Assembly: GCA_964629655.1 (NCBI GenBank)
Contig: CAZVQU010000002.1
Coordinates: 396,878 to 460,877 of the forward strand
Direction: 5' to 3'
From: an uncultured Planctomycetia bacterium
Lineage (GTDB): Bacteria; Omnitrophota; Gorgyraeia; Duberdicusellales; 4484-171
Length of the DNA: 64,000 bases
Both the position numbers and the translations under genes were made by a program. The notes below the pieces were generated by a model, which was not told where the DNA came from, searched no databases, and saw nothing but the letters and a program-made list of their open reading frames with translations. Shown piece by piece: positions 33,298 through 48,555 of this stretch (position 1 is its first letter; each line of letters opens with the position of its first letter).

Positions 33298-34698
33298 TTA
33301 AAGAATAGAAACATCCCCTTTGTCTTTTACCGGCAGCTTTACGATTAATTTTGTCCCACGACCAGGCGAAGTATCCACAGTCATTTTTCCGCCTAATAAT
33401 TCTGTTCTTTCACGCAAACCCAAAAGGCCCAATTTGAGTTTATCCTCTTTGCGCCGACGGGCAAACGGTTGTCTATAGTCAAACCCTATACCATCATCAG
33501 CAACAGTAAGGCAAACCGTATCGCCCTTTTTCTCTAAGGAAATCTTTGCTTTCTTAGCCTGTGAATGTTTAACGATATTGGTTAAACCCTCCTGAGCTAC
33601 CCGATAAAGAATAAGCGAATATTCACCGGGCAAATTTAAAGGCTTGGCTGGTAAACTTGAACTAAATTTAATCGAAGATATCGGTTTGTATTGAAAAATA
33701 AGACCGGCGATTGTATCGATTAATCCTACTTCTTCTAAGGCCGGCGGACGAAGAAGCTCAGCAATATTGTGACTTTTGTCTATTAAACCGGAGAGAATTT
33801 TTTTGCTTTGAGCAATGTCTTTCTTTGCTTCCTTATTTGAAGGAGTGAGTTTCTTATCAATAATGTCTGCATAAATCATTAAAGCACTTAGATCCTGACC
33901 CATCTGATCATGAACTTGAAAAGAAAGATTCTGGCGCTCTAACTCCTCGGCTCTAATCATCTTCTGAACTAGCTTTTTCCGCCTTTCCTGTCCGCTCTTA
34001 TGGTTACGATAGATGACCCAAGCGGTTTCACCGCCAAGGCCTAAGCCTAAAATTAAAGACCAGATTAAAAGCTTTATTGCCCGTTTCTTAGCCAGCTCGG
34101 CTAAGCGCAACTGCTCTTCCACAGCCTCTAGGTTAGTCTTCTGAATATTGCCGTCAATAAATTCATCGATTTTATACAACTTGTTTTCAAAGACCATCAC
34201 CAACTTATTTATAGTATCTTCTATCTTTTCCCTTTTTGGCCCTTTGGTATTCTCTAGGCGGTCAGCTGAATTAATAATCTTTTCCCCGATACCATACAGC
34301 TCTTGCTCCAGCTTCCTAACCTGTTCAATCCACTGACGCTCAATTGCTGTACGGGCAAAAGAAGTATAGCTAACTAACTGGTGTTGGAAATCAATCCTGG
34401 CAGTACTAATTGCTTCCCGGTTTGCCGCACCTTTGACAGCCCCAAGATATCTGGCGCTACGCCAAAAGATATAATTACGGACACCCCTCGCGTATGAGCT
34501 ATTATCTATACGCATCTCCAAGGCAGCCTTTTGAAGAGGAAAATAGTGCTTTCCTAGATCCTCTACACTTTTACTCAAAAATTGAATTTGAAAAATTCCG
34601 ATACAGCCAATGGCCACCATGAGAAAAAGCAACGCACTAAATCCACCGACTAATCTCCAATCAACTAGGTATCTCTTCATAAAACCTGGGTATAGCAC
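33298..34698 (-). CDS. sensor histidine kinase, HisKA_3/NarX-like, with an extracytoplasmic sensor domain between two TM helices (466 aa)
   Basis: TM1 (GGFSALLFLMVAIGCIGIF), a sensor domain of about 170 aa, and TM2 (LLIWSLILGLGLGG). H-box HDQMGQDLSAL. HATPase_c N/G boxes (LTNIVKHSQA...DDGIGFD...GLLGLRERTELLGG). Confidence 0.85.
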   Translation of the reverse strand: MLYPGFMKRYLVDWRLVGGFSALLFLMVAIGCIGIFQIQFLSKSVEDLGKHYFPLQKAALEMRIDNSSYARGVRNYIFWRSARYLGAVKGAANREAISTARIDFQHQLVSYTSFARTAIERQWIEQVRKLEQELYGIGEKIINSADRLENTKGPKREKIEDTINKLVMVFENKLYKIDEFIDGNIQKTNLEAVEEQLRLAELAKKRAIKLLIWSLILGLGLGGETAWVIYRNHKSGQERRKKLVQKMIRAEELERQNLSFQVHDQMGQDLSALMIYADIIDKKLTPSNKEAKKDIAQSKKILSGLIDKSHNIAELLRPPALEEVGLIDTIAGLIFQYKPISSIKFSSSLPAKPLNLPGEYSLILYRVAQEGLTNIVKHSQAKKAKISLEKKGDTVCLTVADDGIGFDYRQPFARRRKEDKLKLGLLGLRERTELLGGKMTVDTSPGRGTKLIVKLPVKDKGDVSIL

Positions 34699-34755: not shown

Positions 34756-35682
34756 TTATTTAGTTTTACTTTCCCAATCCAATACCTTCCTGGCTTCAAC
34801 AATCCAGTACTCCACTCTCACTGCATCTTTGGCATCGGGACGAACTTCAAGGTAAGCCTGATAATGCTCAATGGCTTTTCTTTTATTAATCAGATGCTCA
34901 TCATAAAGAATAGCCAAGTTATAGTGGACGTCGGCATCGTTCGGCGCCGCCTCTAAGGCCTTTTTGTATTCGATTAATGCCTTTTTGTATTTCAAATCTT
35001 GGTCGTAGGCAAGGGCCTTATTGTAATGATGTTTTAAAGCTTGTTTCCGAAACTTCTCGTCTTCCAAGCTTACCGAATCTAGCTGATCACTTCCCTTGCC
35101 CCCGGCAATCTTGAATTCAACAATTGTCTGGCTGCTTTCATCTAATTTTTCTAGGAGTTCTTTATTCTTTTCTATTGATTCTTCTAACTTTACCTCAGCA
35201 TTCTTCACCTGTTCCTCTAGCGCCTTTTTGTCAATAATAAATTCCACCATTTTTGAGTCGGCTTTTTTCTTAAAATCTTTCTCTCTGGATTCAACTTTAA
35301 GCTCATATAGCTTAATCTGCTTCTGATGTAATTTTTTTATCTCGGCTAAGGCGTCTTCTAAATCTTCTTTTCCGGCGGCTAAGGCCTCTTGCTGCTTCAC
35401 GAGGCTTTCTTTGGTCCGGATAATTTCTGCGATTTGTTCTTTCTGCAAAGCCATCTTGCTATTCAAACTTTCTTTTTCGGTAACAAAAAGAATATTCTTC
35501 TGATTCGCTTCAAGAAGCTCAATCTTTGCATCCTCTAGGCCCCGGCTTTTATCTTTTAGGTCTTGCTCTAAGAGCTTCACTTCGTCTACTAACTTGTTGT
35601 TAGCCATATAGACACTAACAACCAGCCCTGCGCATATTACCACTAATCCAATTCCTATACCTAGCCACTTGTTTTTATTCAT
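34756..35682 (-). CDS. membrane-anchored coiled-coil protein with a C-terminal TPR (308 aa); short paralog of the 2,263-aa protein
   Basis: N-terminal TM (WLGIGIGLVVICAGLVVSVYMA) and a long heptad-rich helical segment. The C-terminal TPR (ALAYDQDLKYKKALIEYKKALEAAPNDADVHYNLAILYDEHLINKRKAIEHYQAYLEVRP) is nearly the same as the C-terminus of the ORF at 38534-45325. It overlaps the secretin stop by 4 nt. Confidence 0.75.
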   Translation of the reverse strand: MNKNKWLGIGIGLVVICAGLVVSVYMANNKLVDEVKLLEQDLKDKSRGLEDAKIELLEANQKNILFVTEKESLNSKMALQKEQIAEIIRTKESLVKQQEALAAGKEDLEDALAEIKKLHQKQIKLYELKVESREKDFKKKADSKMVEFIIDKKALEEQVKNAEVKLEESIEKNKELLEKLDESSQTIVEFKIAGGKGSDQLDSVSLEDEKFRKQALKHHYNKALAYDQDLKYKKALIEYKKALEAAPNDADVHYNLAILYDEHLINKRKAIEHYQAYLEVRPDAKDAVRVEYWIVEARKVLDWESKTK

Positions 35683-37406
35683 TCTTTCTCCGGTTTCCTT
35701 GTTTTTCCATGGTTTTTCAAATAAAGCAGCTCTTCTTTTCCGGTTATAATATGCGGAGTGAGAAATACTACTAATTCCTTCATCTCCTTGGTGTTATATC
35801 TAGATTTAAAAGCGTTTCCCAAAACCGGAATATCGCTTAAAAAAGGTATCCTACTTTCAGAATCACTTATAGATTCCTTAATCATTCCGGCAATAATTAT
35901 CGTCTTCCCGTCTTGGATCAAGACAGTTGTCTCAGCATTAGATGTGTCTACCTCGGGCAGGCTAATTTGTGCTACTCCATCTTCATCCAATATCTCAAAC
36001 CAATCTATTAGTGTGCTAACTTCAGGTTTAATATGCATCTTTACTAAATCATCTTGATAAATCGTAGGCGTAACAGCAAGGGTTACGCCGACATCCACGA
36101 ATTCTGCAGTCCAGGAAGTAGTAGCTGTAGTTTCACTCTGAGAAACTGTGCTGGTAGCATAAGGCTGGCGCGTACCGACCATAATCGTAGCCTCTTCATT
36201 ATTACAAACAGCAATATGAGGAGAAGAAACAATTTTAACCTCACCGACCTCTTTTAAAAAAGTAAGAATCTGTTGAGTCCTGGTAGGGTCTAATCCTCCA
36301 GAATTCCAAGCTTCTGAAGTTGTCCCTTCGCCGGTATAAAATCCCTCTCGCCATTGCCCTACAGAAACCCTGCCATAAGAACTTGTTATCCCCGAAGCCG
36401 GGAAAGCACCTACAAGCTTTATATTCTTATCTGTAGTAGTAAACAGTGACTCCCAATTTACGCCAAAAGAATAATCATCACTTAAGGTTATCTCGACAAT
36501 CTTTGCTTCAATAAATATTTCTTTTGGCGGAGTATCGAAAGTAACAATCATCTCTGTAATCTCTTCAATCTTATTAGGCAAATCATTTACAATTATTTTA
36601 TTTGTCCTCTCATCGGCGCGAGCAGAGCCAAAACCTTCGGTCAAGACTGCAGTTACCTTTATTAGGATATCCGCAGCCTTAGAATACTTTAGCTCAAACA
36701 CTTTGGTAGTCGTAGGCGATGTTTTTTTAATAATACCTTCATCGAGACTAAACGCAGCTTTTTCCATTTCTCTTATCTTCTCCGGCGTATCTATTAAGAT
36801 AAGGCTGCCGGTAGCGTCGTCCATAATAATCTTACCGATAGAACTTTTAATGTTTGTCAAAGCCTCTCCGGCTTTTGTCGGCTTTATATACTTTAACTTC
36901 AAAGTCTTAACTTCTCCCTTGTTGGTATATTTCTCCCCATAGAGCGCTTCATACTCTGCCTCAGTCAATATGGTAATAATGTTTTTCTTTTTTTCACAAG
37001 CCAGTTTATTAGTAAGCAAGATTACATCCAGTGTGTCAGCGATAGTTACATCTTTTAGAAACAGGGTTATCCTTCCAGAAACATTTTTACTGGTAACAAT
37101 ATTCAAACCGCCTTTCAGTGATAAAAACTTAATAGTATCAACTATATCCATACCCCGTAAATCCAGCGATATTTTCTTAGCCAGGCCTTCTTCCATAGTA
37201 AGAGGGACTTTCTCAATATCCGAAGACTTATCGGTTAAGTCTTCTCCGGTGATAAGAGAGGTTTCGAGATCCAAAGACTCCTCAGTAGGTGAAACCGTCT
37301 CTTTAGAAGCAGCTGAAGTAGTCTCCTCAAGAGATTGAGCCTGTCCTGCTCCAGCGACTAAGCCAACAACAACCAATATTAACACTATCCAATTTATCTT
37401 TCTCAT
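35679..37406 (-). CDS. secretin, GspD/PilQ family (575 aa), copy 1
   Basis: Signal peptide, two Secretin_N-like domains (…TNKIIVNDLPNKIEEITEMI…), and a C-terminal secretin domain (VSSPHIAVCNNEEATIMVGTRQPY…GVTLAVTPTI…ETTVLIQDGKTIIIAGMI…IPFLSDIPVLGNAFKS…ELVVFLTPHII). Confidence 0.85.
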   Translation of the reverse strand: MRKINWIVLILVVVGLVAGAGQAQSLEETTSAASKETVSPTEESLDLETSLITGEDLTDKSSDIEKVPLTMEEGLAKKISLDLRGMDIVDTIKFLSLKGGLNIVTSKNVSGRITLFLKDVTIADTLDVILLTNKLACEKKKNIITILTEAEYEALYGEKYTNKGEVKTLKLKYIKPTKAGEALTNIKSSIGKIIMDDATGSLILIDTPEKIREMEKAAFSLDEGIIKKTSPTTTKVFELKYSKAADILIKVTAVLTEGFGSARADERTNKIIVNDLPNKIEEITEMIVTFDTPPKEIFIEAKIVEITLSDDYSFGVNWESLFTTTDKNIKLVGAFPASGITSSYGRVSVGQWREGFYTGEGTTSEAWNSGGLDPTRTQQILTFLKEVGEVKIVSSPHIAVCNNEEATIMVGTRQPYATSTVSQSETTATTSWTAEFVDVGVTLAVTPTIYQDDLVKMHIKPEVSTLIDWFEILDEDGVAQISLPEVDTSNAETTVLIQDGKTIIIAGMIKESISDSESRIPFLSDIPVLGNAFKSRYNTKEMKELVVFLTPHIITGKEELLYLKNHGKTRKPEKE

Positions 37407-38056
37407 ATCAGTTCGATCTCCCCTCCCTCAAAGCTCAAAATAACTCGATCTTTTAAAATATCTTCTATCTTAAACTTATTGATCTTCATACCTTTCTTAA
37501 GAAAGTATGTTTTCTTAGTCTTGCTATCCTCAATCATTGCCACTGGATCTTTGCTCCAAGATATGCCTACTAAGTCTAATTCTCCGATCATTTCCTGCAA
37601 CTGTTTTTTTTTAACTTCCTTATTACTTTTAGTTTCCTTGAGCGCTATCGGACTAAAGATGTTCCTACGGTTAACCATTTCGAAATAATGTAAGAACGGA
37701 CGGGCCTCGGATACCTCCTTCTGCTCAGACTGCCTCCATTTCATCAACCGGCTCTTTTCGTAAACTGCTTTTATATCGGGACGGCCGAAAACAAAAGCCA
37801 CTACTGCATAGCCTAGAAGAACCACCGATAGAACAAAAAAAACTCTGTTTAAAGTCTTCAAGTTAGGGTCTCTCAAACCCTTGATTAATCTTGTCAAGGG
37901 CCGGCTTATGCCTTTGGTCAAAAAACGCCAGAAACCTTTTAGGCCGCTGAAATTTAAAAACAGCTTCTTTTTCTGTCTGAATTTTGCGACTTCGTCGCCT
38001 TTGTCTATCAGCCTTAATAGCTGTTCTTCAGGAGTAAATCCTTGTTTTGCCATCAT
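37403..38056 (-). CDS. hypothetical single-pass membrane protein (217 aa), possibly a secretin-associated inner-membrane component (PilP/GspC-like C-terminal beta domain, tentative)
   Basis: Central TM (VFFVLSVVLLGYAVVAFVF). The C-terminal KKTYFLKKGMKINKFKIEDILKDRVILSFEGGEIELI is beta-rich. 4-nt overlap with the secretin start. It is absent from the paralogous copy-2 module. Confidence 0.5.
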   Translation of the reverse strand: MMAKQGFTPEEQLLRLIDKGDEVAKFRQKKKLFLNFSGLKGFWRFLTKGISRPLTRLIKGLRDPNLKTLNRVFFVLSVVLLGYAVVAFVFGRPDIKAVYEKSRLMKWRQSEQKEVSEARPFLHYFEMVNRRNIFSPIALKETKSNKEVKKKQLQEMIGELDLVGISWSKDPVAMIEDSKTKKTYFLKKGMKINKFKIEDILKDRVILSFEGGEIELI

Positions 38057-38150
38057 AATTTTGCCCTAGAGTTAACGATTTCTCCTATGATTTTTTTATC
38101 CCCAACAGATTCATTTTCCTTATCTAAACCAAAAATCTGATAGTAACCCA

Positions 38151-38378
38151 TCAAATGCCCTCTAACTGTTTTCTAATTAAACGTAAAGGATAACCTTCAT
38201 TCATAAGCCGGGTTATCTTAGCCAACCTTCTTCTGACCTCAGCCTGATTATACATCCGCACATTGCCTTTTTTGGTTGCTATGCGCAAAAGGCCGAAATT
38301 AGTGTAGTGATTAACAGTCTGGTAAGTAATGCGGTACTTTTTTGTAATCTCCTGGGCTGATATTAGCTTACCATCCAT
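38151..38378 (-). CDS. small MerR-like (BldC/excisionase-type) HTH DNA-binding protein, 75 aa, copy 1
   Basis: ISAQEITKKYRITYQTVNHYTNFGLLRI..KKGNVRMYNQAEVRRRLAKITRLMNEGYPLRLIRKQL matches the MerR N-terminal HTH-wing. There is no effector domain. The DNA is 100% identical to the copy at 47268-47495. Confidence 0.7.
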   Translation of the reverse strand: MDGKLISAQEITKKYRITYQTVNHYTNFGLLRIATKKGNVRMYNQAEVRRRLAKITRLMNEGYPLRLIRKQLEGI

Positions 38379-38533
38379 ATTAGCTTTTCCGTACTTTCTT
38401 AGGTATTAATATACTTATGGTAACTACAATAGATATGGTTATCATTGTATATACTACAACCTTCTTATATTACCACAGCCTTTCGCTTATTCTCTCCGTG
38501 GTGTTTATCGCTTAGACCGAATCTAGACAATGA

Positions 38534-41500
38534 TTAATCCCAAGAATCCCACTCTAAGGCTTGGCGGGCCTTAATTATCCAACCAGCCACTTGCGACTCA
38601 TCTTCAGCAACAGGCTTGAGATCAAGGTATTCCTGATAATGCTGGATAGCCTTTCTTTTCTCATTTAGATGGTCATCATAGATAAGAGCTAAATTGTAGT
38701 GGGCATCAGCATCGTTAGGGTTAATTTTCAACACCTCTTCATATTCCATGGCAGCTTCGTGATACCTTTCGTTGTAGTCGAGTTCGAAAGCCTGGTAATA
38801 GTGTTGGCTGAGAAGATTCTCATCTATCTCTTCCTCCTTTTTGAAAACTTTTTCTTTGATCATCCGAGCTTGAGACAAATTCTTCCACTGCCTCGTCTTC
38901 TTTCTCTTCTCAGATAATATTTCCTTCATTTCTTGGTTAGCCCGGGCAGCATCTCGTTCGGCCTTTTCTATTTTGGCAAACTCCTTTTTCCTCTTAGCTT
39001 CCAACACTTCCATCTCAAGTCCCCACTTTTCTTCACCCCAATCACTAAATTTCTTATGCAAAATTGTAAAAGAGGTTTTAAGATTTCCGAATGCTGTGTT
39101 TACTAGAGTCTCCTGATCTTTGATATCTTTAAGGTTTTTCTGTGCAACTTCTAAATCATTCTGGATAGGAATTATCTCTTTTTCAACATCTTCAAGACTT
39201 TTGCGGATCTTCGGCAACTTCACTTGAAGTGATTTTTCTTTTTCGTTAAGTTTTTCTAATCCTGTTTCTTCTTCCTCCAGGGATTTACCCAAATTAATTA
39301 TTCTCTTTTGCGATCCATCAATTTCTGCCTTTTTTTCTGAAATTTCAAATTCCAATTGTTCCTGCTTTCTACCTAATCTTGCTACTTTCGTCTCTTGGTC
39401 TTCAGTCAGTTTATTGAACTCATAGATATCTACCTTAATTACCTCTCTTTCTCTTACAAATTGGTCAGCCTTTCTTTTAAAATCTCTCTTTTGAATCGTA
39501 AGTTCTCCCAACCGGCTGGTAGAACCAGCTAGGCGCACAGCCACCTCTTCTATTTCCTTTTGAATTACCCTCTCATCTTTCTTCAAGTTATCGAGCTCAA
39601 TCTTAAAAGCCTTCTCCTGCCTACCTAGCTGCTCTTCCTGAACCCAGGTTTTATCGATAAGGCGATTTATCATAGTTATTTTTTGTTGGGATCCCCGACG
39701 CCGGGAGGTTATCTCAGAGAGTTTGTTTTCCTGAATCTGTTCATCCTTGTCTAGAAAAATGAGCTTTTCTTCAGCTTCAGCTAAAGAAGCGGTGGCCTCA
39801 ATTATCTGGTTGGCCAAAAACTCTTTTTCAGTATTAAAGCTCTGAAATTCCTTATTGATCCGGGCTTGTTCACGGACAAATCCATCTTGTTTCTTTTTCT
39901 CCTGATCGATCCGGGAGGATATCTGGGAGATGCTCAGATCGAATCCCAGGGTTGCATTCTTGAATTCATCCTTCTGCCGGGATATTTCTTCTTCCCTATT
40001 AAGCTTCTCTTGGGCCAAGTCTTTTTGAAACCGACTTATCTTAACTTGTGACTCTTTCTGGAAAACTAATATCTGATTAAGTTCGGATTTAAGGGCTTGC
40101 TGTTTTTGGATTAGCTCACTAATTTTTACCGTATAACCTTTTAACCCTTTTTCTCCGGCCTCGATAGCGCCTTTTAAATCTTGTTGTTGAGTAGTTAGGG
40201 TTATGATCTCTTCGGTCAAGGCGTTCTTTTCTAAAGATAGTTTATTTTGGAAGGATTTTTCTTGGTTGAAGGAACGAGATGTTTTCTCTATTTCGGCCTG
40301 GATATCTTCTCTGCTTTTTACCACCGAATCCATCTCAGCCTGAAGAAGTTTCTCCTGTCTACTTAGCCGCTCTCCGGCCTGCTTATTCTTTTTTAAACCA
40401 GTGAGCTTTTCTTTAGCTCTAGCTAAAGAAGCGATGGCATCAGTTATCTGTTTGGCCAAAATCTCTTTGTCAGCCTTAAAGCTATTGAATTCCTCATTGA
40501 TTCGGGGCTGTCGGCGGATAAGCTCATCTTGTTTCTTTTTCGCCTGGTTAATCCGGGATGATATCTGAGGAATATCCATACCAATAAGTTCTATATTCTT
40601 TTCTATCCCTGATAGAGTAACGATAAAAGCTTTTTCCCTTTCTAAAGATTGGGATTGCTCTTGCTCTGCCTGCTCTTTTTGAACTAAAAAGTCTTCGCTC
40701 TTGTTTTTAAGAATTTGTAATTCTTTTTGCAATAACTCAAGACGACTGGTCAGCTTTTTCTCTTCGGATACAATCTCAGCTTCCTCAACCTGAGCTTTAT
40801 CGATAAGATCACTTAGCATAATTATCTTTTGTTGGTATTCCTGACTCTGGGAGGCTATCTGGGAAAGTTTATCTTTCTGAACTTGTTGATCCTTTTTAAA
40901 ACCAGTGAGTTTTTCTTTGGCTTTAGCTAAAGAAGCAGTGGCATCAGTTATCTGTTTGGCCAAAATCTTTTTGTCAGCCTTAGAGTTATGAGATTCCTCA
41001 TTGATCCGGGTTTGATTCCTAGTAAGCTCATCTTGTTTCTTTTTCGCCTGGTCGATCCAGGAGGATGTCTGGGAAATATCTATGCCAATAAATTCTATAT
41101 TCTTCTCTATCTCTGATAAGGTAATGACAGAAGCTTTCTCTCTTTCTAAAGATTGGGGTTGCTCTTTTTCAGCCAAGAAGTCTTTATTCCTGTTTTTAAA
41201 AGTTTTTAATTCTTTTTGTAATAACCCAAGCCGCCTGGTCAGCTTTTTCTCTTCGGATACAATCTCAGCTTCCTCAACCTGAGCTTTATCGATAAGATGA
41301 CTTAGCATAACTATTTTTTGTTGGTATTCCTGACTCTGGGAGGCTATCTGGGAAAGTTTATTTTTCCGAGCCTGTTGATCATTCTTTAAAACAGTGAGTC
41401 TTTCTTTAGCTTTAGCTAAAGAAGCAACGCCTTCAGTTATCTGTTTGGCCAAAATCTCTTTGTCAGCCTTAGAGCTATGAAATTCTTCATTGATTCGGTT

Positions 41501-44500
41501 TTGATTCCTAGTAAGCTCATCTTGTTTCTTTTTCGCCTGGTTGAACCGGGAGGATATCTGGGAAATATCTATGCCAATGAGTTCTATGTTCTTTTCTATC
41601 CCTGATAGAGTAACGATAAAAGCTTTTTCTCTTTCTAAAGATTGGGAAGCCTGAATTTTTTTATCATCAATGTCATTAAGGATATCTACTATTTCCCTCT
41701 GTATAGCTTCCCTATCAGTAGTAAGTTTTGTAAGAGCGACTCTTTTATCAACTTCTTTTTCAGGGCTAAGTTTAGAAATTTTATCCTGCATTTTTCGTTC
41801 TTGAATAACAATCTTTCTTTCAGCACTCTTTTTTGTTTTTAAAAGGGAACTCAACCTTTTCATTTCATCCTTGCCTACTTTTCCTAAAATAAGAAGCACC
41901 TCAGCTAGTCCTGCTTCTGAAGTTTCTCTATTGCCAATTAATACCTGCCTTGCATTTCTCTTTTCTTCCAACAGCGCCTTCAATTTTAACAGCTTAATAT
42001 TGTTGTCTTTAATCTCTGACTTTATACTGGAAATTTTTAGCTTAGTAGAATCTTGATACGCAGAAATATCTTTATTAGCAGCTTGATGGATTTTTAATGT
42101 TTTATTCGCTTCGTCGATTTGACTTTTAATATTTTTTTCCGTACGAGTTAATCTTATCTCTTTTATTTTTAAAGAATCTTTAGTAATACTTAACTCACCG
42201 TAGGTATCTTTAGCTTCGGCAAAAAGATCTTTTAGCCTAACGATTTCGGCCTGGATATCTTCTCTGCTTTTTACCACCGAATCCATCTCAGCCTGAAGAA
42301 GTTTCTCCTGTTTACTTAGCCCCTCTCCGACCTGCTTATTCTTTTTTAAAACAGCGAGCTTCTTCTCAGCCTCAGCTATCTGTTTGGCCAAGTCCTCCTT
42401 CTCACCATCGATGTCATAAAGCTCCTCACTAATTCGAGGTTGTCGACGGATAAGCTCATCTTGCTTATTTCTTGCCTGGCTGATCCGAGAGGATATCTGG
42501 GAAATATCCATGCCAATGAGTTCCATATTCTTTTCTATCCCTGATAGAGTAACGATAACAGCTTTTTCTCCTTCTAAAGATTGGGATTGCTCTTGCTCTA
42601 CTTGCTCTTTTTGAACCAAGAAGTCTTTGCTCTTGTTTTTAAGAGTTTGTAATTCTTTTTGGAATAACTCAATCCGGCTAGTCAGCTTTTTCTCTTCGGA
42701 TACAGTCTCGTCTTCCTGAACTTGGGTTTTATGGATAAGGCGCTCTAGCATAGTTACTTTTTGTTGGTGTTCCTGACTCTGGGAGGCTATCTCGGAAAGT
42801 TTATCTTTCTGAACTTGTTGATCCTTTTTAAAAACAGTGAGTTTTTCTTTAGCTTTAGCTAAGGAAGCAGTAGCTTCAATTATCTGGCTGGCTAAAATCT
42901 CTTTATTGGTATTAAAACTATGGAATTCCTCACTAATACGGGGTTGTCTCCGGATAAGCCTATCTTGTTTCTTTTTCGCCTGGTTGAGCCGGGAGGATAT
43001 CTGGGAGACGTCCATATCAATGATTTCTATATTCTTCTCTATCCCCGATAAGGTAACGATAACAGCTTTTTCTCCTTCTAAAGATTGGGATTGCTCTTGC
43101 TCTACTTGCTCTTTTTGAACCAAGAAGTCTTTGCTCTTGTTTTTAAGAGTTTGTAATTCTTTTTGCAATAACTCAAGCCGGCTGGCCAGCTTCTTCTCTT
43201 CAGATACAATCCTAGACTCCCGAACCTGGGTTTTATAGATAAGGCGGTCTAGCATAGTTACTTTTTGTTGGGATTCCTGGCTCCGGGAGGTTACCTGGGA
43301 AAGTTTATCTTTCTGAACCTGTTGATCATTTTTTAAAACAGTGAGTTTTTCTTTGGCCTCGGCTAAAAAGGTAGTACCCTCAATTATCTGGTTGGTCAAA
43401 TCCTTTTTCTCAGCATCGATGTCATAAAGCTCCTCGTCAATCCGGGTTTGTTGCCGAGTAAGCTCAGCCTGTTTCTTTTTCTCCTGGTTGAGCAGGGAGG
43501 ATATCGGAGAGATGCTCAGATCGAATTCCAGGGTTGCATTCTTAAAATGCTCATCCTGCCAGGATATTTCTTTTTCCTTATTAAACTTCTCTTGGACCAA
43601 GTCATCTTGAAACCGTCTTATCTTAGCTTGTGATTCTTTCTGAAAAGTTAATATATGCTTCAGGCCGGATTCAAGGGATTTTTTCTTTTCCTTAATTAAA
43701 ATATTTCCTTTAGCTTGCTCTTTAGCTAAAACATTTATCTCTTCCTTTATCTCACCTATTCGCAGCTTGATATTTTCCTTTTCCTGTCCAAGAGAAACAA
43801 GGACTTCCTGAGTATTTTTATAGCCTTTAGAAATATTTTCTAGATGTGACTCCTCATCCTCTAACAAATCTTCTTGTTCTAATATCTCGCTTTTTAAAGC
43901 AGCTTTTTTACTGTCCACTATTGAAAGCTCGGCTAAAACCTCTCTTTGTTCTTTTAAAACCTTTTCTTTTTCCTGATTTTTTCCACTTATGTCGCTTTTT
44001 AGACTCTCTATCTCTTTCTGGATAATTCTTTCCTTTGAAAATATTTTTAGAGACACATGGCCTTTTTTTTCTTTGGTTTTAAGGATATTTTGTTGTTTAT
44101 CAAAAAATTCATTTTCAAGAAGCTTGACTGTTTTCTTAATATCTCTTATTCGTTTTCCTAAATCTGCAATTTCAGAATTAACCCTTAAAAGCTCTAACCC
44201 TGCTGGCTTTGCTCTTTCCTCCAACCTTGTCAAGAGTTGCCTTTCTTTTTCTAAGGAATTCTTAACATTCAATATGTTGGTTTCTGTATTTCTCTGCTCA
44301 GTAATATTTTTCGATATCTCTGCTACTGTTTCACTTTCTTGCCACAAGAGGTTTTGCTTAACTTTTTCTTTCTCGCCTAAAGCAGAATAAATATCTTCAA
44401 CCACGTCTCCAGCTAATTCTTTATCTCTCTCAATACCCATTAATTGTAGTGTCAGTTCTTTCTCCTGTTCATCCAATTCTTTTTCCTTCAAAGACCCTTC

Positions 44501-45325
44501 TGCTAAAAGTTGGTCTAATCTCTCAATTTTTGTTTGGAAACCCTCTGGCTTAGAAGAACTAAATTTCCCAACCTTAGCTCTAACTTCAGCTACTTCTCGT
44601 TCAACTTGTACCTCGATTTTTCTTTGTATTCTCTTGTGGAATTTTTCATCTTTTTTAGCTTCTTTCGCGGCTCGAGCTTCTATTTTTTGGGCACCTAGTT
44701 CAATTGCTTTTTCCTCCTTCTTGTGGATTTTTTCAGCTTTCCTAGCTTCCTTCGCAGCTAGAGCTTCTATTCTTTGGGCGCCTAGTTCAATTGCTTTTTC
44801 CTCCTTCTTCCGGATTTTTTCAGCTCTCCTAGCTTCCTTTTCAGCCTGAGCTACTTCTCGCTTAACTTGCACCTCGACTTCTCTTTGTATTTGCTTGCGG
44901 ATTTTTTCAGCTTTCTTAGCTTCCTTCGCGGCTAGAGCTTTTTTTCTTTGAGCAGCTAGTTCAGCTGCCCTCTGTTCCTTTTTGCGGAGTTTTTCAGCTT
45001 TCTTAGCTTCCTTCGCGGCTTTAGCCTTCTCTCTTTGAGCAGCTAGTATAGCTGCCCTTTGTTCCTTTTTGCGGAGCTTTTCAGCTTTCTTAGCTTCCTT
45101 CGCGGCTTTAGCCTTCTCTCTTTGAGTAGCTAGTTCAGCTGCCCTTTGTTCCTGCTTATTGAGTTCTTCAACTTGTTTATCCTTTTCATTTTCAGAGTCA
45201 ATAAGAAGAATCTCTTTAGAGTATTCTTCTAAATCGCTGTCCTTTGCTGATGCTACAAAGTCATTTACAAAAAAGACAGTTAAAAGCAGGGCCAATATAG
45301 GGATGTAATTTTTCTTTAACATCAT
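38534..45325 (-). CDS. giant secreted coiled-coil protein with internal tandem repeats and a C-terminal TPR (2,263 aa)
   Basis: Signal peptide MMLKKNYIPILALLLTVFFVNDFVASA. About 6 K/A/E-rich repeats of 25-28 aa (KEQRAAELAAQREKAKAAKEAKKAEKLRKK). About 7 copies of a roughly 160-aa unit (SLE(G/R)EKA.IVTLSGIEKNIE.IG.DISQISSR.NQAKKKQDEL.R.Q.RI.EE…). C-terminal TPR (YNERYHEAAMEYEEVLKINPNDADAHYNLALIYDDHLNEKRKAIQHYQEYLDLKP). Confidence 0.85.
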   Translation of the reverse strand: MMLKKNYIPILALLLTVFFVNDFVASAKDSDLEEYSKEILLIDSENEKDKQVEELNKQEQRAAELATQREKAKAAKEAKKAEKLRKKEQRAAILAAQREKAKAAKEAKKAEKLRKKEQRAAELAAQRKKALAAKEAKKAEKIRKQIQREVEVQVKREVAQAEKEARRAEKIRKKEEKAIELGAQRIEALAAKEARKAEKIHKKEEKAIELGAQKIEARAAKEAKKDEKFHKRIQRKIEVQVEREVAEVRAKVGKFSSSKPEGFQTKIERLDQLLAEGSLKEKELDEQEKELTLQLMGIERDKELAGDVVEDIYSALGEKEKVKQNLLWQESETVAEISKNITEQRNTETNILNVKNSLEKERQLLTRLEERAKPAGLELLRVNSEIADLGKRIRDIKKTVKLLENEFFDKQQNILKTKEKKGHVSLKIFSKERIIQKEIESLKSDISGKNQEKEKVLKEQREVLAELSIVDSKKAALKSEILEQEDLLEDEESHLENISKGYKNTQEVLVSLGQEKENIKLRIGEIKEEINVLAKEQAKGNILIKEKKKSLESGLKHILTFQKESQAKIRRFQDDLVQEKFNKEKEISWQDEHFKNATLEFDLSISPISSLLNQEKKKQAELTRQQTRIDEELYDIDAEKKDLTNQIIEGTTFLAEAKEKLTVLKNDQQVQKDKLSQVTSRSQESQQKVTMLDRLIYKTQVRESRIVSEEKKLASRLELLQKELQTLKNKSKDFLVQKEQVEQEQSQSLEGEKAVIVTLSGIEKNIEIIDMDVSQISSRLNQAKKKQDRLIRRQPRISEEFHSFNTNKEILASQIIEATASLAKAKEKLTVFKKDQQVQKDKLSEIASQSQEHQQKVTMLERLIHKTQVQEDETVSEEKKLTSRIELFQKELQTLKNKSKDFLVQKEQVEQEQSQSLEGEKAVIVTLSGIEKNMELIGMDISQISSRISQARNKQDELIRRQPRISEELYDIDGEKEDLAKQIAEAEKKLAVLKKNKQVGEGLSKQEKLLQAEMDSVVKSREDIQAEIVRLKDLFAEAKDTYGELSITKDSLKIKEIRLTRTEKNIKSQIDEANKTLKIHQAANKDISAYQDSTKLKISSIKSEIKDNNIKLLKLKALLEEKRNARQVLIGNRETSEAGLAEVLLILGKVGKDEMKRLSSLLKTKKSAERKIVIQERKMQDKISKLSPEKEVDKRVALTKLTTDREAIQREIVDILNDIDDKKIQASQSLEREKAFIVTLSGIEKNIELIGIDISQISSRFNQAKKKQDELTRNQNRINEEFHSSKADKEILAKQITEGVASLAKAKERLTVLKNDQQARKNKLSQIASQSQEYQQKIVMLSHLIDKAQVEEAEIVSEEKKLTRRLGLLQKELKTFKNRNKDFLAEKEQPQSLEREKASVITLSEIEKNIEFIGIDISQTSSWIDQAKKKQDELTRNQTRINEESHNSKADKKILAKQITDATASLAKAKEKLTGFKKDQQVQKDKLSQIASQSQEYQQKIIMLSDLIDKAQVEEAEIVSEEKKLTSRLELLQKELQILKNKSEDFLVQKEQAEQEQSQSLEREKAFIVTLSGIEKNIELIGMDIPQISSRINQAKKKQDELIRRQPRINEEFNSFKADKEILAKQITDAIASLARAKEKLTGLKKNKQAGERLSRQEKLLQAEMDSVVKSREDIQAEIEKTSRSFNQEKSFQNKLSLEKNALTEEIITLTTQQQDLKGAIEAGEKGLKGYTVKISELIQKQQALKSELNQILVFQKESQVKISRFQKDLAQEKLNREEEISRQKDEFKNATLGFDLSISQISSRIDQEKKKQDGFVREQARINKEFQSFNTEKEFLANQIIEATASLAEAEEKLIFLDKDEQIQENKLSEITSRRRGSQQKITMINRLIDKTWVQEEQLGRQEKAFKIELDNLKKDERVIQKEIEEVAVRLAGSTSRLGELTIQKRDFKRKADQFVREREVIKVDIYEFNKLTEDQETKVARLGRKQEQLEFEISEKKAEIDGSQKRIINLGKSLEEEETGLEKLNEKEKSLQVKLPKIRKSLEDVEKEIIPIQNDLEVAQKNLKDIKDQETLVNTAFGNLKTSFTILHKKFSDWGEEKWGLEMEVLEAKRKKEFAKIEKAERDAARANQEMKEILSEKRKKTRQWKNLSQARMIKEKVFKKEEEIDENLLSQHYYQAFELDYNERYHEAAMEYEEVLKINPNDADAHYNLALIYDDHLNEKRKAIQHYQEYLDLKPVAEDESQVAGWIIKARQALEWDSWD
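39600..43700 (-). repeat. tandem units of about 480-660 nt inside the coiled-coil gene (about 7 copies at 70-90% nucleotide identity)
   Basis: The recurring nucleotide block ggaaagtttatctttctgaac(t/c)tgttgatc…agtgagtttttctttggctttagctaaagaagcagtggcatcagttatctgtttggccaaaatc has copies near 39720, 40380, 40860, 41343, 42340, 42797 and 43299. Confidence 0.8.
44620..45150 (-). repeat. short tandem repeats of about 80-110 nt encoding the K/A/E-rich N-terminal repeat region of the coiled-coil protein
   Basis: Repeated tttttcagctttcttagcttccttcgcggct(a/t)gagc…ttgagcagctagttcagctgccc(t/c)ttgttcctttttgcgga. The shadow ORF 44634-44849 shows the periodic FWAPSSIAFSSF. Confidence 0.75.
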
Positions 45326-45335
45326 TTTTTTATTC

Positions 45336-47198
45336 CTATAATGCTTCTGTGCGAATTTTGCGCCTTGGCGGCTTCCGCCGCTTTTTTCCTTCCCTATAGT
45401 ATTTTGAATTTTTCTTTGTTTTATCTATCTGCTCCACGTATAAAATATCTTTATCCCCGGATATAATACGTGGAGTGAGAAATATTACTAATTCCTTCAT
45501 CTCCTTGGTATTATAGGTAGACTTGAACATTTTTCCCAAAAAAGGAATATCGCCTAGAAAGGGAGTCTTTTTTTCGGATTCAGTCATGGTTTCCCTAATC
45601 ATCCCGGCAATAATCACAGTTTTCCCGTCTTGAATCAAAGCAGTTGTCTCAGCATTAGATGTATCTACCTCCGGCAGGAGAATTTGGCTTGTTCCGGCTT
45701 CATCCTGTATCTCAAACCAATCTATCAACGTACTCACTTCGGGCTTAATATGCATCTTTACAAAATCCCCTTGATAAATCGTAGGGGTAACCGTAAGGGT
45801 TACGCCGACATCTACGAATTCTGCGCTCCAGGAGGTAGAAGATGCAGTATCGGTGTTAGAAATTGTGCTGGTAGCATAAGGCTGACGCGTACCGACCATA
45901 ATCTTAGCCTCTTCATTGTTGCAAACAACAATATGAGGAGAAGAAACAATTTTAACTTTACCCACTTCGTTTAAGAAGGTAAGAATCTGCTGCGCTTGGG
46001 TAGGGTCTAATCCTCCGGGATTCCAAGCTTCTGAAGTTGTCCCCTCGCCGGTATAAAATCCCTCTCGCCATCGTCCTAGAGAAATCCGGCCGTAAGAACT
46101 TGTTATCCCCGAAGCCGGGAAGTCACCTGTAATCCTTATATTCTTCCTTGATGAAGCCTTGAACATTGTCTCCCAGTCCACGCCAAAAGAAAAATCATCA
46201 CTTAAAGTTATCTCAACAATCTTTGCTTCAATAAATATTTCTTTTGACTGGGTATCAAAAGTAGCAATCATCTCTGTAATCTCTTCAATCTTATTAGGCA
46301 AATCATTTACAATTATTTTATTTGTCCTCTCATCGGCGCGAGCAGAGCCAAAACCTTCGGTCAAAGCCTCAGTCACCTTTAGTACAAGATCTTCAGCTTG
46401 GGAATACTTTAACTCAAACACTTTGGTAATCGTCGGCGGCATCTTTTCGATAATACCTTCATCAAGCCGTAGCGCAGAGCTTTCCATTTCTCTTATCTTC
46501 TCCGGTGTATCTATTAAGATAAGACTGCCGGTAGCATCATCCATAATAATCTTACCAATAGAACTTTTAATGCTTGCTAAAGCCTCTCCGGCTTTTGTGG
46601 ACTGAATATACTTTAGCTTCAAAGTTTTAATTTCTCTTTTTTCGGTGTATTTCTCTCCATAGAGCGCTTCATACTCTACCTCAGTCAATATGGTAATAAT
46701 GTTTTTCTTTTTTTCACAAGCCAGTTTATTAGTAAGCAAGATTACATCCAGTGTGTCAGCGATAGTTACATCTTTTAGAAACAGGGTTATCCTTCCAGAA
46801 ACATTTTTACTGGTAACAATATTCAAACCGCCTTTCAGTGATAAAAACTTAATAGTATCAACTATATCCATACCCCGTAAATCCAGCGATATTTTCTTAG
46901 CCAGGCCTTCTTCCATAGTAAGAGGGACTTTCTCAATATCCGAAGATTCATCGGCAGACGAAGCCGTTTCTTTAGAGGCAGCTGCATCAATCTCTTCAAG
47001 TAACTGAACCTGCCCTATCGCATCAGTTAAGTCTTCTTCGGTGATAAGAGAGGTTTCGAGATCCAAAGATTCCTCAGTAGGCGAAACCGTCTCTTTAGAG
47101 ACAGCTGAGGTAGTCTCCTCAAGAGATTTAGCCTGTTCTGCTCCAGCGACTAAACCAACAACAACCAATATTAACACTATCCAATTTATCTTTCTCAT
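45336..47198 (-). CDS. secretin, GspD/PilQ family (620 aa), copy 2; paralog of 35679-37406 with a 45-aa N-terminal insertion
   Basis: Same N-terminus (MRKINWIVLILVVVGLVAGA) and same secretin C-domain. 276 nt (46681-46956) and about 100 nt (46271-46374) are identical to copy 1. The extra segment ITEEDLTDAIGQVQLLEEIDAAASKETASSADESSD is itself an internal duplication. Confidence 0.85.
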   Translation of the reverse strand: MRKINWIVLILVVVGLVAGAEQAKSLEETTSAVSKETVSPTEESLDLETSLITEEDLTDAIGQVQLLEEIDAAASKETASSADESSDIEKVPLTMEEGLAKKISLDLRGMDIVDTIKFLSLKGGLNIVTSKNVSGRITLFLKDVTIADTLDVILLTNKLACEKKKNIITILTEVEYEALYGEKYTEKREIKTLKLKYIQSTKAGEALASIKSSIGKIIMDDATGSLILIDTPEKIREMESSALRLDEGIIEKMPPTITKVFELKYSQAEDLVLKVTEALTEGFGSARADERTNKIIVNDLPNKIEEITEMIATFDTQSKEIFIEAKIVEITLSDDFSFGVDWETMFKASSRKNIRITGDFPASGITSSYGRISLGRWREGFYTGEGTTSEAWNPGGLDPTQAQQILTFLNEVGKVKIVSSPHIVVCNNEEAKIMVGTRQPYATSTISNTDTASSTSWSAEFVDVGVTLTVTPTIYQGDFVKMHIKPEVSTLIDWFEIQDEAGTSQILLPEVDTSNAETTALIQDGKTVIIAGMIRETMTESEKKTPFLGDIPFLGKMFKSTYNTKEMKELVIFLTPRIISGDKDILYVEQIDKTKKNSKYYREGKKRRKPPRRKIRTEAL

Positions 47199-47267
47199 AT
47201 CAGTTCAATCTTCTTCGTCATCAACCGACCTTTTCCTTATCTAAACCAAAAATCTGATAGTAACCCA

Positions 47268-47495
47268 TCAAATGCCCTCTAACTGTTTTCTAATTAAACG
47301 TAAAGGATAACCTTCATTCATAAGCCGGGTTATCTTAGCCAACCTTCTTCTGACCTCAGCCTGATTATACATCCGCACATTGCCTTTTTTGGTTGCTATG
47401 CGCAAAAGGCCGAAATTAGTGTAGTGATTAACAGTCTGGTAAGTAATGCGGTACTTTTTTGTAATCTCCTGGGCTGATATTAGCTTACCATCCAT
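47268..47495 (-). CDS. small MerR-like HTH DNA-binding protein, copy 2. The track ORF extends to 47522 through an alternative upstream ATG, but the copy-1 homology starts at MDGKL.
   Basis: The coding sequence and about 50 nt of 3' flank are nucleotide-identical to 38100-38392. The two copies diverge 12 nt upstream of the ATG. Confidence 0.65.
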   Translation of the reverse strand: MDGKLISAQEITKKYRITYQTVNHYTNFGLLRIATKKGNVRMYNQAEVRRRLAKITRLMNEGYPLRLIRKQLEGI

Positions 47496-47796
47496 ATTAG
47501 CTTTTCCGTTTACTGCCGCCATTTGTATAGTACCTTAATACTCCACTGTGATCTAGACATTAATTAGTCAACTTATGATACCTACCATAAGTATGACTCT
47601 TATTGAACCTATCATAAAAAGACTTTGTTGCCAAGAAACATCTAAAGATGACAATCCGTACAATTGATATCAAGTTATTGTGGTAAATACAATAACTATA
47701 GTTATTATTGAATTTATCACAAAACCAATAACTTGTCAATATTTTGTTAAATATTATAAAAATGAGGAGCCGGAGCTGAATATATTAGCAAAAATG

Positions 47797-48555
47797 CTAA
47801 TAAATCACCTTATATAGGTATAGCCCTGAGGCCGGAGCGGATTCATTAGTATATTTGATTCTTTTAGATAAAATTAATGAGATATTTTTAAAAGCTAGGT
47901 CTTTTCTACCTATTTTCACTAAAAAGGAAACTATATTCCGTACCATAGAACGCAAGAATCCATTTGCTTCTATATCAATATATATAAAAGAACTCTTCCT
48001 TTTAATTGATATGACTCCTACATCTCTTATGCAATCTTTGTAGTTCTTGGCTTTTTTGGCAAAAACAGAAAAATCTCTTTTGCCTTTAATCTTTCTAGAA
48101 GCCTTCTCCATTAACTCTATATCCAAATTTCCATCTACATGCCAGGCTAAATTATGCCAAAATACAGAAGGTTCTTTTGTGTTTAAAATTACGTAGCGGT
48201 ATATCTTGGATTTTGCTGAAAACCGGGCATGAAAATTATCGGAGACTTTTTTTACTTTCTTTACTCTTAAATCAGAAGGTAATAAATTGTTTAAGGCTGA
48301 TTTTATATTTTCAAAAGGTATTTTCGTATCAACTTTAAAATTTATCACTTGAGCCCTAGCATGGGCTCCCCTATCGGTTCTGCCAGAAGCTATTACTCTT
48401 ATTTTCTCCCTGAAGAGCTTAGCCAGAGTTTCCTCTAAGGCCCCCTGGATAGTAGCTTGATTCCTCCCCTGGGATTTTTGAGTTTGGAAACCAAAATAGT
48501 TACTCCCAATGTACTCTAATTCTAGGAGAATATTATTGGCATTGATACTCATCAA
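47797..48555 (-). CDS. truA: tRNA pseudouridine(38-40) synthase
   Basis: TruA family. Catalytic region IASGRTDRGAHARAQVINF. Typical 250-aa length. Confidence 0.85.
   Translation of the reverse strand: MMSINANNILLELEYIGSNYFGFQTQKSQGRNQATIQGALEETLAKLFREKIRVIASGRTDRGAHARAQVINFKVDTKIPFENIKSALNNLLPSDLRVKKVKKVSDNFHARFSAKSKIYRYVILNTKEPSVFWHNLAWHVDGNLDIELMEKASRKIKGKRDFSVFAKKAKNYKDCIRDVGVISIKRKSSFIYIDIEANGFLRSMVRNIVSFLVKIGRKDLAFKNISLILSKRIKYTNESAPASGLYLYKVIY

Follow-up and report, generated by a model that had tools for sequence, protein, structure and literature searches.

Tandem secretin modules of an Omnitrophota genome: probable outer-membrane part of a machine resembling the type II secretion system, and gene conversion between the copies

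Results and Discussion

Two modules of one cassette

Two neighbouring groups of genes, each containing a secretin, lie in a stretch of 64,000 nt from contig CAZVQU010000002.1 of an Omnitrophota bacterium, hereafter the window, to which all coordinates refer. These groups, modules A and B (copy 2 and copy 1, respectively, in an earlier sequence-only reading of the same DNA), are probably tandem paralogs of an Omnitrophota-wide cassette for the outer-membrane part of a type IV filament machine resembling the type II secretion system (T2SS). The interpretation proceeds from the observed domain identities of the proteins, conserved synteny, the mosaic pattern of identity between the copies and contiguity with T2SS-like genes. 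A full cassette comprises a BldC-like MerR protein, a GspA/ExeA/MshM-like ATPase, a GspC/PilP-like protein, a secretin and a coiled-coil protein with tetratricopeptide repeats (TPR). The GspC/PilP-like inner-membrane protein is expected to dock on the N0 domain of the secretin, with which the membrane-anchored or exported coiled-coil protein with its terminal TPR unit would work, and the motor would be supplied by inner-membrane and pseudopilus genes ~39 kb downstream, which have no secretin or GspC of their own. The two halves of such a machine would be separated by a kinase/regulator pair, a giant gene, a GGDEF regulator and an F-type ATPase operon. Non-reciprocal recombination would keep overwriting the 5′ parts of the modules, that is the MerR gene in full and, in the secretin gene, the stretch that encodes N0; the identical N0 face of both secretins would then meet the one GspC-like protein that is left, whereas the barrel ends and the TPR partners would stay different and form two specialised portals.

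All genes of the region are on the minus strand (Table 1). In the order of transcription truA is followed by the genes of a MerR_1 helix-turn-helix (HTH) protein, secretin A, a coiled-coil/TPR protein of 2263 aa and a second MerR_1 HTH protein, and then by those of the GspC-like protein, secretin B, a 308-aa coiled-coil/TPR protein, a histidine kinase, a response regulator and the giant open reading frame (ORF). The sequence-only reading had described two tandem modules, each with a small regulator, a secretin and a coiled-coil/TPR protein, and Pfam indeed returned MerR_1, Secretin, two copies of Secretin_N and TPR. Its list of genes was right as far as it went but overlooked the GspC/PilP-like gene at 37403-38056, present in module B only.

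Related loci were gathered by a scan of species-representative genomes, which returned 60 of them, with record titles mostly of Omnitrophota, some of Planctomycetia/Planctomycetales and a few of other taxa. Their genes were compared by ORF calling and phmmer; labels of the type L001 denote related loci, and L071/L075 the Logan contig that carries the region past window coordinate 1. The cassette that recurs in these loci consists of genes for a MerR_1 protein of 65-107 aa, an ATPase of AAA_22 type with ~288 aa, a ~217-aa bitopic protein, a secretin and a coiled-coil/TPR protein with an N-terminal hydrophobic segment, and it is commonly followed by a kinase/regulator pair, a DUF2341 protein and a very large ORF.

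Both window secretins far exceed the cutoff of Pfam Secretin (PF00263; 161.5 and 164 bits against 27.5). They remain below the subfamily cutoff of NCBIfam PilQ (TIGR02515; 257-258 bits against 284) and the equivalog cutoff of GspD (TIGR02517; 236 and 242 bits against 351). Secretin A is composed of a Sec signal peptide, N0, two Secretin_N domains, the secretin domain and a basic C-terminal tail, and Pfam detected no AMIN domain in either protein at E <= 0.01. The AlphaFold model of secretin B (mean pLDDT 70) has N0 at residues 78-156, alpha/beta N-domains at 165-228 and 233-290 and a barrel, with residues 19-67 predicted to be disordered. Its best Foldseek match was PulD in the PulD/PulS/PulC-HR complex (6hcg, E 1.5e-22), and the N-terminus of the secretin aligned to N0-N1-N2 of XcpQ/GspD. 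Three N-domains were recognised per secretin (N0 and two of Secretin_N type), against N0-N1-N2-N3 in GspD. In sequence comparison the top PDB match was PilQ (6ve2, 120 bits). Derivation from a filamentous-phage pIV protein with an excisionase-like HTH was also considered and was rejected in view of the chromosomal housekeeping context, the phylum-wide occurrence of the cassette and a weak pIV match (56 bits).

The GspC-like protein of the window matches Pfam T2SSC with E 1.6e-4 (22 bits against a cutoff of 27). It has a transmembrane segment at residues 73-91, and its HR-like domain extends to the last residue, 217; Pfam found neither a PDZ nor a coiled-coil domain at the C-terminus. Within its family 34 of the 48 members match T2SSC (best E 1.4e-8) and 10 match T2SSB, and the family profile matches both Myxococcus PilP (3jc8, E 4.4e-5) and GspC-HR (3oss_C, E 5.1e-5). 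A single-sequence AlphaFold model (mean pLDDT 51.6, C-terminal domain below 50) was dropped from the fold search. It is known that GspC-HR binds the N0 domain of GspD and that PilP binds that of PilQ (PMC3169554, PMC3441751). Since only one GspC-like gene is left and the N0 domains are identical, both secretins may be able to dock on one adaptor or platform; both would then serve the T2SS-like machine, and the identity of N0 would matter for docking.

The AAA_22 ATPase, represented by 41 ORFs in related loci, scores 170 bits with TIGR03015, the PEP-CTERM-associated ATPase family, which we take to be related to GspA and MshM. No intact gene of this kind is present in the window; only a relic of 33 codons was found there, by tblastn with residues 255-287 of the L003 protein (45% identity, E 2e-4). 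Intact in relatives, the gene has apparently been deleted from the window genome.

T2SS-like genes past the window edge

Neither a GspE-type Walker A motif nor T2SSF nor a prepilin motif (G-F/M-T-L-I-E) was found in the window by Pfam and by regular expressions in six frames, and the earlier remark that it holds no ATPase, platform or pseudopilin gene of T2SS or type IV pili is true inside these limits but does not extend far beyond them. A 39-kb Logan contig (L071/L075), 100% identical to window positions 11116-1, continues past coordinate 1 with atpA, atpG, atpD, gspE, atpC, gspF, gspG, GspI-, GspJ- and GspK-like genes, then a PilM-PilN fusion, a PilO/GspM-like gene, a 160-aa lipoprotein gene and housekeeping genes. 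The gspE gene starts ~3.4 kb past coordinate 1 on the strand shared with the modules, and the gspE-M cluster stands ~39 kb downstream of them. NCBIfam scores were 557 bits for GspE, 357 for GspF, 112 for GspG (above the cutoff of 88.85) and 102 for GspK, and the GspE (L075:10001-11743) carries, in its MshEN domain, an MshE-type motif for binding of cyclic di-GMP (c-di-GMP; 59.9 bits against a cutoff of 38). An identical GspE protein is recorded on a 598,929-bp contig that carries both secretins. No secretin or GspC gene belongs to the cluster on the Logan contig, and no GspH or GspO prepilin peptidase was seen in the ~96 kb examined of this contig, which measures 599 kb or more. A homolog search with a 135-aa PilMN fragment gave no match. 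Exact-protein look-ups gave matches for the ATP synthase b/delta protein, which led to the Logan contig, for the short TPR protein and for GspE, and none for both secretins, P0001, truA and asd.

In the F-type ATPase operon (L075:6234-11992) gspE is embedded between atpD (beta) and atpC (epsilon). This operon has no recognisable a-subunit gene, and with 547 bits its atpA exceeds the cutoff for ordinary atpA (484 bits).

The sequence-only reading had proposed that the secretins are portals dedicated to the giant or the long coiled-coil protein, free-standing and working without a T2SS or type IV pilus motor. One can find some arguments for this: no motor gene lies in the window, no ATPase, platform or pilin gene is found within 10 kb of most cassettes, and the cassette has its own promoter-like region and regulator. 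We nevertheless regard it as improbable. A gspE-M cluster that has no secretin or GspC is present on the same strand of the same contig, so that the secretins most likely are its D component, and a GspC/PilP-like partner implies docking to an inner-membrane platform. Moreover, GspC-like/secretin pairs are contiguous with gsp genes in two related loci: in L062 gspE-F-G-K-pilMN-pilO are directly followed by GspC-like and secretin genes, and in L053 the genes from gspE to the GspK-like one are followed by AAA_22, GspC-like and secretin genes. In L033 the secretin and TPR genes stand directly before p244 (a 244-aa protein), GGDEF, F-ATPase and gspE, with no giant gene between.

Another explanation deserves more weight, though we consider it clearly less probable than a T2SS-like function. 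The machine may be a type IVa pilus (T4aP), in which case the secretins would be PilQ-type portals used for host-cell attachment or motility and the giant gene would be a mere neighbour. PilQ is the top match of the secretins both in NCBIfam (257 bits) and in the PDB (6ve2), the platform genes are of PilM/PilN/PilO type, PilB scores the gspE product almost as high as GspE does (534 against 557 bits), and loci combining F-ATPase and T4aP genes have been described across Omnitrophota (Seymour et al. 2023, PMC10066038). On the other hand, the major pilin-like protein passes the GspG cutoff and the minor ones are nearest to GspI, GspJ and GspK, the secretins have no AMIN domain, no PilT-type retraction ATPase was seen in the ~96 kb examined, the best structural match is PulD, and the giant ORF is placed downstream of the cassette non-randomly.

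Gene conversion between the modules

Gene conversion between diverged paralogs, suggested by the sequence-only reading from two identical tracts, is supported by permutations, by synonymous divergence (dS; 0 in the tract against 0.45-0.62 elsewhere) and by a tree with syntenic relatives. When delimited by maximal extension of the exact match in the assembled sequence, the identical tracts shared by the two modules comprise 279 nt in the MerR region, 268 nt in the N0-coding part of the secretins and 100 nt in their last N-domain (36545-36644 = 46265-46364), the third being additional to the two noticed before. The MerR tract, previously given as 38100-38392, is exact over 38114-38392 but has 11 mismatches in its first 14 nt, and the secretin tract of supposedly 276 nt is exact over 268 nt and has 4 mismatches at its end. 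This 268-nt tract encodes secretin residues 61-150, and it is assigned to N0 because the PilQ N0 structure (PDB 4ar0) aligns to residues 76-151 of secretin B. For the rest of the secretin genes the identity, earlier put at about 85-90%, was measured as 87.5% over 1498 nt; the proteins are 83% identical, and copy A has a 24-codon insertion.

The mosaic of tracts with zero synonymous divergence exceeds chance. In 3000 permutations of the 225 differences the longest identical run was on average 42 nt and at most 91 nt, compared with the 268 nt found, and 96 successive codons without a third-position difference compare with a maximum of 58 in 20,000 permutations. Synonymous divergence is 0.18 in codons 1-60, 0 in codons 61-150, 0.45 in codons 151-575 and 0.62 in the last 100 codons. 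Constraint on the protein is excluded as the reason for the identical tracts, since synonymous sites are identical too; omega is ~0.3 for the pair, so that purifying selection acts on both genes. In the first 75 residues, which comprise signal peptide and linker, the window paralogs have 94-96% identity, against mostly 14-42% in comparison with orthologs (up to 66% for residues 51-100), and in the last 100 residues the paralogs are 60-70% identical, which is below the values for some orthologs.

Perfect tracts of 268-279 nt are within the range where short-read assemblers can merge near-identical paths, and the tracts or even the duplication could be an artefact of collapsed or cross-polished paralogous reads. 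The chance of that is, in our opinion, very small. The two-module order was found in the independent assemblies L001, L002, L007, L060 and L061, and the gradient of identity (dS from 0 to 0.62) reaches well past the perfect tracts. In Logan assemblies of 4 sequencing runs, contigs match window positions 36525-26193 or sub-ranges thereof with 100% identity; 3 of them break off precisely at 36525, where an exact 31-nt repeat between the copies has its edge, as is expected if both copies exist in those samples.

A recent tandem duplication in this lineage, followed by uneven divergence and no gene conversion, would agree with the pairing of A and B copies within the window genome and within L002, which was observed in a neighbour-joining, distance-based tree. 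It is, however, very improbable. In L001, a locus of equal synteny, the secretins belong to different clades, the upstream one (L001_A) joining the window/L002 clade and the downstream one (L001_B) the single-copy L003 and L007; the MerR types of L001 are swapped relative to its secretin types. The 3′ ends of the window secretins are nearer to some orthologs than to each other, dS varies between 0 and 0.62 within one gene, and the partner genes are far apart, encoding 2263 and 308 aa. The TPR in which both partners end, earlier called the same, is homologous but only 50% identical over the last 90 residues (E 7e-30). Independent deletions also mark the modules as old: besides the AAA_22 relic of the window, 3′ remnants of the GspC-like gene persist upstream of secretin A in L001 and L002, which points to independent decay. 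(In L001 two unrelated ORFs are inserted where the GspC-like gene of module A used to be.)

The order MerR, secretin, long coiled-coil/TPR, MerR, (GspC-like), secretin, short TPR, kinase, regulator is shared by the independently assembled L001 and L002, partly by L007, and also by the more distant L060 and L061. The duplication is therefore old and common to relatives rather than peculiar to the window genome, and predates its split from L001 and L002. Paralogs cluster within genomes despite this older duplication, as seen from the tree, the identity matrix and synteny. The 5′-to-3′ gradient of identity together with the mixed pairing in the tree is characteristic of repeated, 5′-biased gene conversion acting on an old duplication. 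A literature search on gene conversion of secretins revealed no relevant precedent.

The two 279-nt tracts form perfect direct repeats on either side of a 9.1-kb segment that contains secretin A and the gene of the long coiled-coil protein. If these repeats recombined, module A would be lost or duplicated anew, and some heterogeneity of the population is possible. In another Omnitrophota clade (L041, L044, L045, L046, L051, L055, L056, L040) two secretin genes are directly adjacent (~510-540 and ~630-850 aa), the longer protein having a C-terminal TPR fusion in L041, L051 and L056. In these last three loci the upstream and downstream secretins form separate orthologous clades, with no concerted evolution seen; a similar split is found in L044, L045 and L040, and pairing within genomes in L046 and L055.

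Regulator, coiled-coil partners and giant gene

The MerR-like protein (75 aa) scores 36.8 (copy 2) and 37.3 bits (copy 1) with MerR_1, against a cutoff of 21.6. Its HTH spans residues 9-73, and neither a dimerisation coiled coil nor an effector-binding domain is present. For copy 2 another possible start, at 47522, would give 84 aa. The best PDB matches are BldC structures (6ama/6amk), in agreement with the BldC-like character proposed earlier, though with a weak E of 0.008. A promoter-like site TTGTGA-16-TATAGT (47722-47695) overlaps a perfect 18-bp palindrome (Table 1) upstream of copy 2; with up to 3 mismatches allowed, the palindrome has no other match in the window (0.03 expected). The palindrome also occurs upstream of MerR genes in L002 (1473-1484 and 8547-8558) and L009 (176-187); module B has only a degenerate counterpart near 38408-38428. 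A TTGACA-17-TATAGT promoter-like region precedes the MerR genes in 18 of 34 loci. Over the whole window such signals are not in excess, with 18 promoter-like sites against 26 in shuffled sequence and 11 terminator-like ones against 11. The palindrome is a candidate operator for the BldC-like protein, and the neighbourhood of this gene with a conserved promoter and palindrome suggests local transcriptional control. The Rfam scan of the window gave no family at gathering score and hence no c-di-GMP riboswitch. A GGDEF regulator by the giant gene and the c-di-GMP motif of GspE suggest that the machine may be controlled by this messenger.

The long coiled-coil protein of module A has TPR_11/TPR_17 at residues 2182-2238, SMC-type coiled-coil matches, internal repeats of 29 and ~163 aa and a cleavable-looking Sec signal peptide ending VASA|K; the long partners in L001 and L002 also start with cleavable-looking signal peptides. 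At the DNA level a unit of ~490-500 nt (copies 73-88% identical) occurs about six times in its gene, and one of 87 nt six to seven times. Orthologs at the equivalent position have 1057 aa (L001) and 1603 aa (L002), which indicates that the length of this protein evolves fast. The short protein of module B, like the short partners of relatives, has an N-terminal signal-anchor helix; it matches Tgl and PilW weakly (E 3e-8 and 3.5e-7). As in TPR-type pilotins, TPR units (TPR_11/TPR_17/TPR_1) were found in the partners, which had earlier been likened to pilotins or PilF. They are not canonical lipoprotein pilotins of the PilF/PilW/Tgl type, because no L-x-G/A-C lipobox is present in the N-termini of either. 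A FimV-like nature of the coiled-coil/TPR proteins was also considered but not adopted. Fusions of TPR units to secretin C-termini in P0051, P0053, P0065, L013, L041, L051 and L056 suggest, by the Rosetta-stone argument, that TPR and secretin act together. The 160-aa lipoprotein at the end of the gspE-M cluster (L075:17906-18388, lipobox LSSTSG|C), for which no family match was found, could be the true pilotin.

The association of the modules with the giant gene, proposed by the sequence-only reading, is non-random across cassette loci. When only species representatives with flanks of 6 kb or more are counted, ORFs of 1000 aa or longer stand downstream of the cassette in 20 of 32 cases and upstream in 3 of 31 (Fisher p = 1.6e-5). 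Most of these large ORFs run off the locus end, and ten downstream ORFs, including an 843-aa DUF2341 protein in L006/L012, are homologous to the giant protein of the window. The latter has at its N-terminus a Sec-type hydrophobic segment, not a prepilin motif. Judging from synteny, this giant Sec-exported DUF2341/LamG protein may be the cargo or a surface-displayed product of the machine, exported through the secretins.

Some neighbouring genes merit mention. The protein p244 has no Pfam or NCBIfam match and is kept in L033 (E 2e-63), where it lies between the secretin/TPR pair and the GGDEF gene. In L022-L034 a second MerR_1 gene and a 330-aa protein gene stand between cassette and giant ORF (L029:13592-15087), and the 330-aa protein of that clade has a domain like that of IS200/REP-associated tyrosine transposases. 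In L001 (63-3047) an RtcB gene with an intein (Intein_splicing domain) was found.

Table 1. Features of the window and their coordinates, in the order of transcription
Feature	Coordinates	Strand	Remarks
truA	47797-48555	-	heads the region in transcription order
Palindrome, 18 bp, CAATAACTATAGTTATTA / CAATAACTATAGTTATTG	47690..47707	.	precedes MerR copy 2; candidate operator/promoter for module A
MerR_1 HTH-only protein, copy 2, module A	47268-47495	-	Pfam MerR_1 36.8 bits; identical to 38151-38378
279-nt identical tract	47231-47509 = 38114-38392	.	MerR gene with 14 nt upstream and 37 nt downstream
Secretin A, 620 aa, module A	45336-47198	-	Pfam Secretin E 1.9e-47, Secretin_N E 2.5e-18
268-nt identical tract	46679-46946 = 36959-37226	.	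encodes N0 domain of both secretins
100-nt identical tract	46265-46364 = 36545-36644	.	in last N-domain, codons 255-288
Long exported coiled-coil/TPR protein, 2263 aa, module A	38534-45325	-	signal peptide, internal repeats, C-terminal TPR
MerR_1 HTH-only protein, copy 1, 75 aa, module B	38151-38378	-	Pfam MerR_1 37.3 bits; PDB match to BldC
Relic, 3′ end of GspA/ExeA-like AAA_22 ATPase gene	38017-38115	-	tblastn; abuts end of 279-nt tract
GspC/PilP-like bitopic protein, 217 aa, module B	37403-38056	-	sole copy in the locus; module A without one
Secretin B, 575 aa, module B	35679-37406	-	Pfam Secretin E 3.1e-48
Short coiled-coil/TPR protein, 308 aa, module B	34756-35682	-	N-terminal signal-anchor helix; TPR matches
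Histidine kinase, HisKA_3 + HATPase_c	33298-34698	-	22 homologs at equivalent position in related loci
NarL/LuxR-type response regulator	32641-33294	-	domain scan and synteny
Giant ORF, 9419 aa	4200-32459	-	DUF2341 + Laminin_G_3; candidate cargo or surface protein
244-aa protein (p244)	3445-4179		signal peptide and C-terminal transmembrane segment
Response regulator-GGDEF diguanylate cyclase	2255-3151	-	directly downstream of giant gene
F-ATPase c subunit	1978-2190		operon running off the window
Peptidase_MA_2 protein	1190-1966		between F-ATPase c and b/delta genes
ATP synthase b/delta	385-1116	-	F-ATPase operon continuing past coordinate 1

Weight and significance of the interpretation

Several points weigh against a T2SS-like machine with giant cargo. 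The secretins are below the curated cutoffs of both GspD and PilQ, and the GspC-like protein of the window is below its Pfam cutoff, with an unusable single-sequence model. With ~96 kb of the contig seen, another secretin, GspC or GspA gene could exist elsewhere on it. The perfect identity of the tracts is known from assemblies alone, not from reads. The link to the giant protein is one of synteny only, and a substrate of ~1 MDa is far outside the known T2SS cargo. Finally, comparable loci have been called T4aP (PMC10066038), and the machine may assemble a pilus rather than secrete.

Divergent barrel ends and differing TPR partners, taken together, may mean that the two secretins form two specialised portals. 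A bolder picture, which we offer as speculation and consider unlikely to be right as a whole, is that in Omnitrophota two interchangeable or mixed portals share one GspC/PilP-like adaptor, on which both could dock thanks to N0 domains that are kept the same by gene conversion. The first portal would work with a periplasm-spanning, anchored coiled-coil/TPR strut and the other with an exported coiled-coil/TPR fibre, which would be ~300 nm long if it were a continuous coiled coil (an estimate from ~2100 residues at ~0.15 nm each). Regulated by the BldC-like protein, the two-component pair and c-di-GMP, such a device would export or display a ~1-MDa DUF2341/LamG adhesin for host cells.

The role ascribed to the giant proteins of Omnitrophota is to attach to host cells or to attack them, and the locus described here offers a concrete candidate route to the surface for proteins of ~1 MDa, one that recurs across the phylum: a secretin cassette immediately upstream of giant genes and tied by synteny to a T2SS-like motor that has no secretin of its own. 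The twin secretins can be regarded as a natural experiment, in which conversion is confined to the MerR gene and N0 and the barrel ends and TPR partners diverge. Such a pattern points to surfaces that need compatibility as opposed to surfaces that are free to specialise. A caution for window-based scans also follows, as the "missing" motor genes were 3.4 kb outside the window.

Giant genes beside T2SS/T4P-like genes have been described in Omnitrophota (West-Roberts et al. 2023, 10.1101/2023.11.21.568195; preprint 10.64898/2026.06.07.730766), as have T4aP-type genes co-located with an F-type ATPase across the phylum and Laminin_G_3 giant ORFs in Omnitrophia (Seymour et al. 2023, PMC10066038). 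Terms for MerR, ExeA/GspA, DUF2341/Laminin and gene conversion, searched in the full texts of West-Roberts et al. 2023 and of the 2026 preprint, gave no hits, and the cassette, the twin secretins and the split layout of C/D versus E-M genes appear to be undescribed in those texts. While the families of the components are known, their architecture and the way in which it evolved are new.

Comparison with known systems

The pair of GspC-like protein and secretin resembles T2SS GspC-GspD, as known from Klebsiella PulC/PulD/PulS (6hcg) and from enterotoxigenic Escherichia coli (ETEC) GspC-HR/GspD N0-N1 (PMC3169554), in having N0, further N-domains and a barrel with PulD as the best structural match, a putatively bitopic partner with an HR-like periplasmic domain, and a gspE/F/G/I/J/K/L-M-like set on one contig, which the secretins would serve as GspD does its own set. 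They differ from GspD in apparently having three N-domains instead of four, in scoring below the GspD cutoff and in being two. The GspC-like protein is without the PDZ or coiled-coil C-terminal domain, and the C/D genes are ~39 kb from E-M, with the giant gene and the F-ATPase operon between. A TPR partner takes the place of a GspS/AspS pilotin, and a 160-aa lipoprotein ends the E-M cluster.

With T4aP PilQ-PilP and PilF/PilW/Tgl of Pseudomonas, Neisseria and Myxococcus (PMC3441751) the locus shares the top secretin matches (PilQ), the top PDB match of the GspC-like family (PilP), platform genes of PilM/N/O type and a TPR protein beside the secretin with weak Tgl/PilW matches. Unlike T4aP, it has no AMIN domain, has a GspG/I/J/K-like pilin set and shows no PilT, and its TPR partners have, in place of a lipobox, a signal anchor or signal peptide followed by 190 to ~2100 coiled-coil residues.

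The cassettes of relatives, with AAA_22 and bitopic GspB/C-like genes before the secretin and TPR after it, are similar to ExeA/ExeB (GspA/GspB) and to the MSHA system with its MshL, MshM and MshN. However, the ATPase of relatives (~288 aa) is without a transmembrane or peptidoglycan-binding part, the window retains only a 33-codon relic of it, and the gene order differs from that of msh. With Streptomyces BldC (6ama/6amk) the regulator has in common that it is a MerR-type HTH of ~70 aa and nothing more, heading each module beside a promoter and palindrome; the similarity is weak, and it leads a secretin cassette unrelated to Streptomyces development. The locus as a whole agrees with giant-gene neighbourhoods of Omnitrophota in the combination of a giant gene with T2SS/T4P-like genes, of T4aP with an F-type ATPase and in Laminin_G_3 giants, while the published loci have more than 10 subunits, with gspD/E/F, rcpC and a peptidyl-prolyl isomerase (PPIase), upstream of their giants.

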